Virus record (IMG/VR): IMGVR_UViG_3300029113_000006 | Span: 1 to 57,109 of that record | Source: a virus | Strand: one strand, 5' to 3' | Length of the DNA stretch: 57,109 nt | Part shown: in pieces, positions 32,807 through 44,259 of the stretch | Position numbering within the stretch: the first letter of the stretch is position 1 | Layout: each line of letters begins with the position of its first letter | Program-made: the position numbers and the translations under genes | The notes under the pieces: generated by a model | Told to the model about the DNA's origin: nothing | Database searches by the model: none | The model's input: the letters and a program-made list of their open reading frames with translations, nothing else

Positions 32807-32908
32807 CCTCAAACAATTTATTTGTTTGAGGGGGGGAGTTAGGGGGATTATAAGGGGTAATAGGGGTTGTAGGGGAAAGAGGGGGAAGAAAGGGGGGAAG
32901 ATTGGATG
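32807..32908 (+). other. 10-bp-stem hairpin followed by a C-free 94-nt tract with seven G4-G7 runs (G-quadruplex/R-loop-prone)
   Basis: CCTCAAACAA-tttat-TTGTTTGAGG, then GGGGGGGagttaGGGGG...GGGGGG; no C from 32815 to 32908. Confidence 0.85.
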
Positions 32909-42293: not shown

Positions 42294-42644
42294 TTACTCC
42301 TCATCATCGTTCGTAATTTTTGGAATCGGCATCCAGAGCCTAACCTTTCCACGGTTATTTTCTTCTGTCCACTTTCCATCCTTAAACTCCCTCGTTGAAA
42401 CACAATCGTTCCAACGCCAAAATTTGTATACGGCAAAGTAGATTCCGTCTTTTTGCGGTTGTGAATCTTTTACGCTAATCCATCTTTGAGATAGATTCAC
42501 TGTTGGTAGTTCTTTCAGATGTTCAAGCTCGCTTTTCCACGCATCAGCAGACGGAAACCGAATGCCAACTTCATCTCGCTTTGCCAGATTGATAAGCCTA
42601 GTTAGGTACTTTTCCAGCGGTTCGATGTCAACAAGCCTGCTCAT
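42294..42644 (-). CDS. DUF551-like protein
   Basis: WISVKDSQP...VRLWMPIPK. Confidence 0.5.
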   Translation of the reverse strand: MSRLVDIEPLEKYLTRLINLAKRDEVGIRFPSADAWKSELEHLKELPTVNLSQRWISVKDSQPQKDGIYFAVYKFWRWNDCVSTREFKDGKWTEENNRGKVRLWMPIPKITNDDEE

Positions 42645-42859
42645 TCTCTCTCACCTCTAAATTCGCTTCCGAGATACCGCTTCTTACCACGCTCCCGGTG
42701 CTTGTCCTCATAGTCACGGTGGTACACGCTCTGGCTGTGGTTCAGCTCATACACGAATGCTTTGCGCTCCTCGAGGTCTTTCTTCTCTGCCTTGTACTTC
42801 TCGCAAGTGTCGTGGCAAGCTGTGCAGCGTAATTTGCAGTTGAGACAACAGGTAATCAT
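42641..42859 (-). CDS. Cys-rich 72-aa protein
   Basis: Start at internal ATG 42859, overlapping the methyltransferase stop; MITCCLNCKLRCTACHDTCEKY... Confidence 0.45.
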   Translation of the reverse strand: MITCCLNCKLRCTACHDTCEKYKAEKKDLEERKAFVYELNHSQSVYHRDYEDKHRERGKKRYLGSEFRGERE

Positions 42860-44259
42860 TCTTCGCCGAATCTCCTTTTTGTAACGGCAATGGGAAACTC
42901 TTCGATTTCGGAAGCCCATCGTGCCGTACCGTTTCCATAGGTCTTTTGCCAGACAAGTGGGAAGCCGCCTATACCGTCGAACAGGCTTCCTAGCGTGGCA
43001 TTTGTACTTAAATAGGGCTTCATCTTCTGTGCAATCCAGAACCATTGCGGTAGAGCAATGCTGTTTCCGAGTGCCTTGTAACGTGGGCTGTCAGCATACT
43101 TATGCTTCTTGCCTTTGCTGTCCGTCCATTCTCCAATGTCCGTCCATCCGTCCGGGTAGCCTTGTAGCCGTTCGCATTCAACAGGTGTCAGACGGCGAAC
43201 AATCCAACGGATAGCTTTTTCTGCAATCAGACACTCGCTGCCATTGCCGATGTTCCCGGCTTTTGCTTTCAAGGTTGAGCATTTGTCGCTTTCTTTGTAG
43301 TGACTGAAAGACTGTTCATTAAAGGTTTCGCGTTCGATTGCAATGGCCGTGTAGTCTGTGATTCTGTTTTCGTGGTCGCCCGTAATTGTTGGCACTATTT
43401 TGCCATCGCCGTTTCCGCGAGCATCATAAACAACAGGCTGAAACAATGTCTGGTCTTGGAGTGTTGAAAGCGTTGCGCTTTTTTCGGTTTGTACCAGAGC
43501 ACCTTTACCACCACCGGCGCATCCACTACGGATTTTCAGGGTGTAGGCTGCAGGTTCTGTGCATCGAGTCGAAGTCTCTCGATGGTCTGACTCCAATACT
43601 CGTCCAATTCCTTCTCTTCCAGACCTTCTTGTTCCTTCACTTTCTGCACCACCTGTGACAGAGTTCCTGGATTCCACCATTCGATCATATCCAGCAACGC
43701 TTGCTTCAGGAGTTCGGGCAAAGGTTTTCCACGCCGGGATGCTCTCACAAGAATTCCCTGACATGCTCGTGCGCTCAAATAGAATTTCTGAGGCACGTTG
43801 TCCTCCAAAATCTGCGACAAGAGCGATTCTTTTACGGCGTTGGGGGACTCCCCAATATTGAGCGTCAAGCTGTCTCCATGCCAAAGACCATCCGTTTCCG
43901 GCGATTGCTCCGGATTTGCTCCATCTGCCCCCCCTACCCGAAGGTCGAGGAATTGAAGCATCTGGTTGTTCCACGCTGGCAAGTTCTTCCAGCACGGCTC
44001 TGAAATCTTCTCCTCCGTTGGAACTGAATGCTCCGGGCACGTTTTCCCAAACAGCGAAAGTTGGATACATTCCATTGGTGGCTGTCCTCATTTCCTTAAT
44101 GATTCTTGCGGCATCCAAAAACAGCACGGAACGGTTGTCGTCAAATCCAAGCCTTTTCCCCGCCATAGACAAGCCCTGGCAAGGACTGCCGAACGTAATG
44201 CAATCCACCGGCTCTATCTTGTCGCCGTGAATCTTTGTGATGTCGCCCAAGTGTTTCAT
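42856..44259 (-). CDS. DNA (cytosine-5)-methyltransferase, circularly permuted (motifs IV-X followed by I-II)
   Basis: GSPCQ (aa 24-28), ENV (72-74), QRR (140-142), RLTPVECERLQGYPDGW (356-372), GNS (398-400), then LFDGIGGF (426-433) and ASEIE (449-453) at the C-terminus. Confidence 0.85.
   Translation of the reverse strand: MKHLGDITKIHGDKIEPVDCITFGSPCQGLSMAGKRLGFDDNRSVLFLDAARIIKEMRTATNGMYPTFAVWENVPGAFSSNGGEDFRAVLEELASVEQPDASIPRPSGRGGRWSKSGAIAGNGWSLAWRQLDAQYWGVPQRRKRIALVADFGGQRASEILFERTSMSGNSCESIPAWKTFARTPEASVAGYDRMVESRNSVTGGAESEGTRRSGREGIGRVLESDHRETSTRCTEPAAYTLKIRSGCAGGGKGALVQTEKSATLSTLQDQTLFQPVVYDARGNGDGKIVPTITGDHENRITDYTAIAIERETFNEQSFSHYKESDKCSTLKAKAGNIGNGSECLIAEKAIRWIVRRLTPVECERLQGYPDGWTDIGEWTDSKGKKHKYADSPRYKALGNSIALPQWFWIAQKMKPYLSTNATLGSLFDGIGGFPLVWQKTYGNGTARWASEIEEFPIAVTKRRFGEE
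43536..44075 (-). other. 179-codon ORF in the +1 frame, wholly inside the methyltransferase gene (possible overlapping gene)
   Basis: Longest same-strand alternate-frame ORF in the window; the C-terminal half is protein-like (LSQILEDNVPQKFYLSARACQGILVRASRRGKPLPELLKQAL...). Confidence 0.3.

Follow-up and report, generated by a model that had tools for sequence, protein, structure and literature searches.

The DNA considered here, called the window throughout, is a stretch of 57,109 nucleotides that makes up positions 1 to 57,109 of the IMG/VR virus record IMGVR_UViG_3300029113_000006, from a phage related to the Faecalibacterium phages Toutatis and Lelie. On its minus strand lies an open reading frame (ORF) of 467 aa, hereafter frame A, which is read from position 44259 down to position 42856 (the end coordinate counts the stop codon, as in the ORF listing) and in which the motifs of a C5-cytosine DNA methyltransferase (MTase) stand in a circularly permuted order. 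Two further features are embedded in the gene: a second ORF of 179 aa in the +1 frame, hereafter ORF B, and a homopolymeric run of G residues whose length varies among close relatives. An earlier note, made from the sequence of the window, had given the coordinates of the MTase ORF exactly, but it left the strand unstated and overlooked both the nested ORF and the variable G tract. The features of the locus are collected in Table 1.

C5-MTases are a textbook example of a rigid motif order. Frame A departs from the canonical linear succession of motifs I through X: from the N- to the C-terminus, its order is III-IV-VI-VIII, target-recognition region (TRD), IX-X-I-II. The stretch containing motif IX, RRLTPVECERLQGYPDGW (residues 355-372), is followed by motif X, from which the chain passes almost directly into motif I, the loop for S-adenosylmethionine (AdoMet), at a junction that reads GNSIALP...PYLSTNA-TLGSLFDGIGGF (PYLSTNA-TLGSLFDG, where TLGSLFDGIGGF is residues 422-433), and the chain ends past motif II. 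Every motif string quoted in the earlier note is present, in the order given there, and its motif assignment, its permuted order and its placement of the break between motifs II and III are all borne out by the motif positions, the profile matches and BLASTP. The Pfam profile PF00145 gives 123.4 bits, its cut-off being 22, and aligns its positions 46-133 with residues 3-96 of frame A; TIGR00675 reaches 112.9 against a cut-off of 100.65; and the top PADLOC model, the orphan-MTase profile oMTase PDLC03715 (E = 3.5e-94), matches from profile position 48. All of these matches begin at about profile position 46-48, not at position 1.

The missing N-terminal part of the profiles is accounted for by a wrap-around match to a canonical enzyme, for which the MTase of Streptococcus phage Javan422 served as the BLASTP reference. 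Residues 1-169 of frame A correspond to Javan422 residues 46-210 (62% identity, E = 2e-70), residues 354-413 to 381-471, and residues 422-466 to 3-45 (E = 4e-7); the cut maps exactly to Javan422 residue 45/46 (...NLPE/VKHLG...), i.e., between motifs II and III. The alignments establish the permuted order and refute a normal one, and the statement in the earlier note that canonical phage enzymes begin with motifs I and II directly before KHLG holds true of Javan422 (VKHLG). As had also been noted, the ORFs upstream of the MTase carry no motif I, and a six-frame scan of the whole window found neither a second motif I in a long ORF nor a second C5-MTase. Judged from its sequence, frame A is a naturally circularly permuted C5-cytosine DNA MTase, with motifs I and II moved to the C-terminus.

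In an alignment of 79 sequences reaching down to 48% identity, residues G24, P26, C27, Q28, E72, N73, R355, T358 and E361 are invariant, as are L426, F427, G429, G431, G432, F433, S450 and E451 of the C-terminal segment. Codon-position diversity, computed on 90 distinct gene sequences of the close group, shows third positions to be 3-4 times as diverse as positions 1 and 2 over codons 1-60 and 241-467, the relocated segment included; changes that are synonymous in frame A occur at 73-86% of the possible sites, compared with 16-34% for non-synonymous ones. AlphaFold2, supplied with an alignment of relatives, models most of residues 1-164 and 348-467 at a predicted local distance difference test score (pLDDT) above 90. 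The C-terminus is modelled as a strand (423-426), a helix (432-441), a second strand (446-450) and a second helix (454-464), as would be expected for beta1-alphaA-beta2-alphaB of the AdoMet subdomain. The earlier note had suggested a structure prediction as a check on whether this segment completes the Rossmann fold; the four elements are modelled as anticipated, and the confidence values suggest that they pack into the fold. The two-domain MTase fold is recognizable in the model, with the catalytic domain at pLDDT above 90 and the small domain poorly modelled, and the top Foldseek matches are M.HhaI (E = 2e-9, root-mean-square deviation 1.2 A over 146 columns), M.MpeI and M.HaeIII, with DNMT enzymes, including DNMT1, also matched.

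The permuted architecture is widespread. A protein identical to frame A is encoded on 51 contigs, and the best 120 database relatives, which are 83-100% identical, all start with MKHLGDITK and end in motifs I and II. Close relatives are mostly found on contigs of 50-60 kb from ENA, JGI, Logan and NCBI, and variants of 503 and 518 aa differ from frame A by insertions in the variable region alone. Among the best 150 representatives of 50%-identity clusters obtained in an exhaustive search, at least 102 have the permuted order and 9 the canonical one. Permuted genes are also present in bacterial assemblies (Gemmiger, Acutalibacter, Intestinibacillus and other Oscillospirales) and in the isolated Faecalibacterium phages Toutatis and Lelie, and a viral predicted structure, A0A8S5TG82, aligns over the full length with the frame A model, which means that UniProt already holds permuted relatives under a generic name. 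The recurrence of an identical architecture in more than 100 independent contigs, spanning ENA, JGI, Logan and NCBI assemblies, IMG/VR contigs, bacterial genomes and isolated phages, makes it extremely improbable that the gene is an assembly chimera, the artefact against which the earlier note had cautioned, or a mis-joined tandem repeat.

As to the origin of the permutation, a neighbour-joining tree was built from 106 permuted and 40 canonical sequences, all first rearranged to a common order. In this tree, 102 of the 106 permuted sequences form a single pure clade, and parsimony requires two state changes. The permutation appears to have arisen essentially once, inside a canonical family of orphan MTases of phages and mobile elements, and its likely route is a fusion of tandem copies followed by trimming. 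Such an origin fits the near-direct join of the native termini, the essentially single emergence and the existence of other rearranged orders in the family. Two relatives, P0200 (540 aa) and P0266 (344 aa), have the order TRD-IX-X-I-II-III-IV-VI-VIII, which may represent either another permutation or a tandem-duplication intermediate. Another, P0124 (362 aa), is normal up to motif IX (RLQGFP) and then continues into unrelated sequence, perhaps that of an element inserted in the gene. Proteins P0032, P0103 and P0116 carry discrete insertions of 36 and 51 aa in the recognition region (window positions 43219-43767, minus strand), suggesting modular exchange of target specificity within the clade.

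Table 1. Features of the permuted MTase gene in the window, with related loci in other records (last two lines)
Feature	Position	Strand	Remarks
Frame A, circularly permuted C5-cytosine DNA MTase	42856..44259	-	Sequence, profiles, BLASTP, AlphaFold, Foldseek
Motif III LGDITK, aa 4-9, N-terminal here	44233..44250	-	Matches VKHLGNIQK, Javan422 residues 46-54
Motif IV FGSPCQ, aa 23-28, catalytic Cys27	44176..44193	-	P26, C27, Q28 invariant in 79 sequences
TGAGGA, upstream stop of frame B (TGA) and Shine-Dalgarno-like GAGGA	44085..44090	-	9 nt ahead of the ORF B ATG
ORF B, nested 179-aa ORF in the +1 frame, over frame-A codons 62-241	43536..44075	-	
Motif VI ENVPG, aa 72-76	44032..44046	-	E72, N73 invariant
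G7 run (C7 on the plus strand) shared by both ORFs, at frame-A codons 110-112	43928..43934	-	
Motif VIII QRRKR, aa 140-144	43828..43842	-	Q140, R141, R142, R144 nearly invariant
Conserved ORF B tail, aa 84-127, SLLSQILEDNVPQKFYLSARACQGILVRASRRGKPLPELLKQAL	43695..43826	-	Alignments, AlphaFold, B-frame selection
Frame A variable region: linker aa 165-240 and target-recognition region aa 241-347	43219..43767	-	pLDDT <50, codon-position diversity, length variants
Motif IX RRLTPVECERLQ, aa 355-366	43162..43197	-	Sequence, BLASTP
Motif X GNSIALP, aa 398-404	43048..43068	-	About 20 residues ahead of motif I
Motif I LFDGIGGF, aa 426-433, AdoMet loop, C-terminal here	42961..42984	-	L426, F427, G429, G431, G432, F433 invariant; pLDDT 96-98
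Motif II WASEIEEF, aa 448-455	42895..42918	-	S450, E451 invariant; matches WNSEVEPF of Javan422
72-aa Cys-rich ORF, downstream of the MTase	42641..42859	-	ATG overlaps the MTase stop (ATGA, 42856-42859)
ORF B counterparts	L001 2501-2878; L083 2225-2710; L084 1764-2222; L085 1734-2213		
ORF B fused to TRD-IX-X-I-II	L252 2001-3140; L254 2001-3218		Proteins P0404, P0421; also P0407, P0132, P0238

Slaska-Kiss et al. engineered ten C5-MTase topologies in 2018, of which Type B, with its new N-terminus between motifs II and III (cp62M.MpeI as well as cp58M.SssI), showed the highest activity of those tested, the activity of cp62M.MpeI being similar to the wild-type level (PMC5944983). Type B was reported to be absent from nature, and the authors asked why (PMC5944983). 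The natural permutants that they list, M.BssHII, M.Alw26I, M2.Eco31I, M.Esp3I, M2.BsaI and 22 further REBASE entries, are all cut in the variable region and thus belong to 'Type H', with the order IX-X-I..VIII (PMC5944983). Frame A answers to the published definition of Type B (PMC5944983): it starts with M-KHLGDITK, joins motif X to motif I and ends past motif II. It is not of Type H, since motifs III-VIII come before its variable region. On the evidence of motif order and alignment, the Type B topology, previously made only in the laboratory, occurs naturally. It is this variant that is new, the C5-MTase family itself being already known; no description of a natural Type B C5-MTase was found in the literature searched.

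Like the engineered Type B enzymes, frame A has its N-terminus between motifs II and III and its motif X helix joined near-directly to motif I. The engineered proteins, a set that includes M.HaeIII permutants from directed evolution (discussed in PMC5944983), differ in being laboratory-made from CG- or GGCC-specific enzymes of the restriction-modification type, whereas frame A occurs in nature, within a different family of phage orphan enzymes, and its permuted form has diverged into over 100 clusters at 50% identity. With the Type H enzymes of the M.BssHII group, frame A shares a natural occurrence, a motif X ahead of motif I and an explanation through permutation by duplication (PMC5944983); their break, however, falls in the variable region and leaves both structural domains intact, whereas that of frame A lies inside the AdoMet-binding subdomain. 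The canonical members of the family, among them the Javan422 MTase (62% identical to frame A over motifs III-VIII), the C5 domain of P1 Dmt, gp12 of Vibrio phage CP-T1 and the PADLOC model oMTase PDLC03715, share with frame A the stretch 'ASEILFE..G..GN' after motif VIII and a nested +1 ORF with the same tail. They begin with M.LGSLF.G.GG ... SE.E.F...VT...P., directly before VKHLG, and it is this segment that frame A carries at its C-terminus. Type B predominates in a large clade of MTases from gut phages, and hence is not missing from nature; the clade offers natural sequences on which both the permutation-by-duplication model and the proposed cost in AdoMet affinity could be tested.

The G tract lies in the coding sequence of both ORFs. 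Across 80 IMG/VR contigs with identical flanks, 62 have G7, 7 have G8, 3 have G6, 3 have G4 (which is in frame), 1 has G9 and 1 has G10, and the run is interrupted in 3. Among relatives, the tract ranges from G4 to G14, and about 14% of alleles put the gene out of frame. The corresponding run in the Toutatis clade has 7, 9, 10 or 14 G residues; Toutatis itself has G9, and Lelie has G14 (about positions 1937-1950 of locus L256). Because G9 and G14 are out of frame, the MTase of these two phages has been annotated as 'hypothetical protein' or as two coding sequences (CDS). In G6 and G9 alleles, approximately residues 1-110 of frame A are joined to the tail of ORF B, giving proteins of 239-241 aa (P0297, P0298, P0308 and P0312, on 1, 7, 9 and 13 contigs, respectively), and in G8 and G14 alleles frame A is truncated and the start of ORF B leads into frame A. 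Since the tract is read in two overlapping frames, the pair of products differs from one length class to the next. A tract that favours the B frame was considered and ruled out, G8, which leads to the third frame, being the commonest out-of-frame class. Given this lack of preference (G8 > G6 > G9), we read the tract as probably an on/off switch of the MTase that operates by slippage.

Bacterial phase-variable methyltransferases (phasevarions) include Type III mod genes that contain simple-sequence repeats. The MTase gene of the window resembles them in having a homopolymer in its coding sequence whose length varies among close relatives, placing the gene in or out of frame. It differs in that phasevarion enzymes are mostly N6-adenine MTases of Type III or Type I encoded on bacterial chromosomes, whereas the window encodes a phage orphan C5-MTase.

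Collectively, we consider it highly probable that frame A encodes a working orphan C5-MTase of a gut phage of about 57 kb and that this enzyme is a natural circular permutant. Its chain starts at motif III, runs through IV, VI, VIII, the variable region, IX and X, and then goes straight into I and II; the C-terminal residues 421-467 would fold back beside the helix of motif X, so that the Rossmann-like sheet regains its full AdoMet-binding half; and catalysis would proceed as usual, through Cys27 (PCQ), Glu72 (ENV) and the arginines of QxRxR. Several points weigh against this reading. The variable region (residues 165-347) is modelled at pLDDT below 50, the packing of residues 421-467 on motif X and the central sheet is read from confidence values, and the authors of the 2018 study suggested that AdoMet binding in vivo might be weaker in Type B enzymes (PMC5944983). 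Moreover, the gene is often broken in relatives: besides the out-of-frame tract alleles, which include those of both cultured relatives, Toutatis and Lelie, there are frameshifting deletions in several lineages, and the enzyme would thus be dispensable at least some of the time. Frequent out-of-frame and split alleles, together with a poorly modelled variable region, are also what might be seen if the permuted gene were an inactive relic or had been recruited to a role other than methylation. We regard this as very improbable, because the catalytic and cofactor residues are all invariant in a clade reaching 48% identity, the relocated motifs I and II are under strong purifying selection, and engineered enzymes of the same topology are active (PMC5944983). 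For the tract, the rival explanation is that its differences in length stem from errors of sequencing or assembly, or from simple decay, and do not reflect a selected switch. The lengths do come from consensus assemblies, the excess of G8 (7) over G6 (3) and G9 (1) is what unselected slippage would give, and a G7 run is not improbable in 57 kb at 49% GC, with about 4-5 estimated by chance and 2 seen. Nevertheless, G7 is kept in 62 of the 80 contigs despite synonymous alternatives, and also in a clade that is about 82% identical locally; synonymous interruptions in some lineages indicate that escape from the run is possible; the range from G4 to G14 includes two separately sequenced isolates; and the same frameshifted proteins recur on 7, 9 and 13 contigs. 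Error or decay is, on these grounds, rather unlikely, and a switch of the MTase is the reading we prefer. Apart from this tract, the window has a single G/C run of at least 7, at 32830-32836 on the plus strand, where no convincing ORF is present.

ORF B lies wholly inside the MTase ORF in another frame, and no description of it was found in the literature searched. A tblastn search with ORF B retrieved 142 phage records. In those checked (Javan422, P1 dmt, Vibrio CP-T1 gp12 and Mycobacterium phage NihilNomen), it is always in the +1 frame of the MTase, and the surrounding MTase is intact in frame A except in NihilNomen, where it is fragmented. Among the phage records examined, ORF B is seen only inside this MTase subfamily (142 of the 1051 records with the N-terminal half of a C5-MTase), and, among the matches listed, each protein-database match to ORF B that has a Pfam domain is fused to MTase sequence. 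The start of the ORF is also conserved, the pattern 'GAAATGAGG N9-10 ATG' being found there in most of about 55 diverse relatives. The TGAGGA bases upstream code at the same time for a nearly invariant Glu-Met-Arg (E-M-R) in frame A, whose conservation may be due in part to the same bases giving the frame-B stop and the GAGG ribosome-binding site. In NihilNomen (L085, positions 1565-2700), parts of the MTase lie in each of three reading frames, the annotation shows two CDS, and an HNH endonuclease gene adjoins; another record of this phage group is annotated 'coding region not determined'. The out-of-frame HNH insertions described in mycobacteriophage methylases (PMC11855218) are a different phenomenon from the nested ORF B.

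In all 54 diverse relatives from bacterial genomes, ORF B is present as a +1 frame that stays open across motif VIII. The median +1 ORF is 141 codons long, compared with 29 codons for the second alternative frame (+2, or equally -1). In 52 of the 54 genomes the +1 frame runs open for 107-199 codons, and in the remaining two for longer, whereas the other frame has stops in 51-52 of them. The +1 products share the tail LSQILE..VP.KYYLS.KAC.GILRRA..RGK.LP..L..AL. These genomes differ widely in GC content; over 40 codons, identity among them is 21% in frame A and 42% in frame B, and frame A is free of stops in all 54. In the close group, the third-position excess that marks frame A elsewhere collapses from codon 61 on, and over codons 161-195 it is reversed: variability is highest at frame-A position 1 (B position 3) and lowest at frame-A position 3 (B position 2). 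Over codons 161-200, B-synonymous changes are found at 76% of the possible sites and B-non-synonymous ones at 42-43%, regardless of their effect on A. Frame-A-synonymous changes that create stops in B occur at 0 of 3 sites in the N-terminal zone of B but at 27 of 32 sites outside it. These patterns indicate that ORF B is under purifying selection.

Neither as a single sequence nor as a profile does ORF B match anything in Pfam, NCBIfam, PADLOC or the PDB sequences. Its sole database label is PHROG 16143, 'DNA methyltransferase', a group that probably consists of the same nested ORFs. AlphaFold predicts residues 1-84 to be disordered and the tail to form a short helix and a two-helix hairpin, with pLDDT 87-89 over residues 101-130; a Foldseek search with this model found nothing. 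The disordered head of B lies over motifs VI-VIII of A, and its structured tail lies over the linker of A (residues 165-240), which codon-position diversity marks as unconstrained, so that the two frames appear, in the models, to trade order and disorder over the same DNA. With hhalign, residues 61-113 of B fall on residues 286-337 of Escherichia coli Dcm, just past motif VIII, in a match that is not significant (E = 0.033, probability 1.5%); against the Javan362 MTase, hhalign found nothing. Several lineages have deletions that fuse B in frame to TRD-IX-X-I-II, with A stopping after motif VIII (P0404, P0407, P0419 and P0132).

A nested product within a C5-MTase gene has a precedent in M.EcoHK31I, whose beta chain has its coding sequence wholly inside the alpha gene, in another frame, and is needed for activity (PMC2836561; PMC3404938). 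The N-terminal 42 residues of that nested product are dispensable, which parallels the disordered N-terminal part of ORF B (PMC2836561; PMC3404938). The two systems differ in that the EcoHK31I beta chain brings in motif IX, absent from alpha, and has itself been proven necessary for activity, whereas in the window the large ORF has all ten motifs and ORF B has none. The fused lineages further resemble M.AquI (alpha and beta) and artificially split C5-MTases, in that L252 and P0404 are split between motif VIII and the variable region, with overlapping ORFs, which is the position where natural and artificial splits complement (PMC5944983; PMC3404938). M.AquI differs from the window, where the chain is continuous.

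What ORF B does can be approached through three readings, of which the most sceptical is that it is not translated, its conservation being due to frame A, to a constraint on the RNA or to chance. Indeed, the first 80 or so residues of B are largely dictated by motifs VI-VIII of frame A and are modelled as disordered. However, such an account leaves unexplained why codons 161-195 vary least at B position 2 and most at B position 3, why B is twice as identical as A (42% versus 21%) over the same DNA in the 54 genomes, why only the +1 frame stays open while the other has stops in 51-52 of the 54, why B stops are avoided (0 of 3 sites, against 27 of 32 outside B), and why a GAGG is conserved 9-10 nt ahead of the ATG, a few codons past an upstream B-frame stop. 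We consider it unlikely, and ORF B is probably translated. The same evidence that B is coding (selection on its frame, the open frame, the conserved start) would equally suit a real, overprinted protein whose role is unrelated to the chemistry of methylation: a regulator of the expression or timing of the MTase, a DNA-binding factor or a counter-defence protein. This is a serious possibility, if short of probable. The absence of similarity in Pfam, NCBIfam, PADLOC and the PDB is in keeping with it, and so is the basic tail (RRA..RGK). Basic helix pairs often bind nucleic acid, and the tail of B may be such a pair. The confinement of B to this MTase subfamily among the phage records examined speaks against an unrelated role, and a shared function accounts more readily for so strict a linkage.

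A shared function could take the form of a two-polypeptide enzyme, in which B docks on A and supplies in trans the connector from motif VIII to the TRD, by analogy with M.EcoHK31I. This would extend, and not contradict, the view of frame A as a permutant, and we put it forward tentatively. It would be consistent with the presence of B in all 54 relatives and in P1 dmt, Vibrio CP-T1, Javan422 and NihilNomen, with the selection on frame B over codons 161-200, and with the fact that in frame A this DNA gives a linker that is free of constraint and modelled at low confidence. A confident hairpin on a disordered N-terminus resembles, in the model, a docking module and not an autonomous domain; B is found naturally fused to TRD-IX-X-I-II (P0404, P0407, P0419, P0132 and locus L252); hhalign places it on Dcm just past motif VIII; and M.EcoHK31I provides the precedent (PMC2836561). 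Yet frame A already holds all ten motifs, unlike M.EcoHK31I alpha, the match to Dcm is not significant, B matches neither PF00145 nor any MTase in the PDB, and the fusions may simply be null alleles that arose through frameshifting deletions. Two ways of joining the frames in one chain were also considered. A programmed frameshift from A to B and back to A is rejected, because the nucleotides that encode the B tail also encode the motif VIII strand, and because frame A is open through the linker in all 54 relatives; a shift from B to A at the end of B is judged unlikely, neither the distance from tail to stop nor the sequence being conserved there. In its fullest form, the connector reading would make B a second product of ancient date, retained universally in a very large family of orphan C5-MTases of phages, prophages and plasmids, spanning P1 Dmt, phages of Vibrio, Streptococcus and Mycobacterium, and prophages of Clostridia, and acting in trans as the connector piece that frame A has given up; in the gut-phage clade, B would be combined with the Type B permutation and with a G tract that chooses among three product pairs. 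This, too, is possible but doubtful.

The nested ORF and the G tract raise the interest of the locus beyond the permutation itself. A conserved overlapping gene inside a widespread MTase family, which includes the long-studied P1 dmt, may matter more than the permutation. If ORF B is expressed, the annotation of these MTase genes is incomplete, and experiments that expressed 'the MTase' also co-expressed a second protein. The G tract, if it is a switch, would make this gene one of few candidate phase-variable MTases on a phage, and a switchable MTase carried by phages is relevant to the ways in which gut phages deal with changes in the restriction systems of their hosts.

The MTase gene is part of a minus-strand early module for phage replication and recombination. 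Among the seven neighbouring ORFs scanned, the small ones of which have no Pfam match, no restriction enzyme was recognized by Pfam, which fits an orphan, self-protective phage MTase. Upstream of the gene are an AAA_24 ATPase and two small ORFs; further downstream are a DUF551 protein and a RecU-like resolvase. The Cys-rich ORF that directly follows the MTase has no Pfam match, and a 72-aa Cys-rich gene follows the MTase in relatives as well; its ATGA overlap with the MTase stop suggests that the two are translationally coupled.

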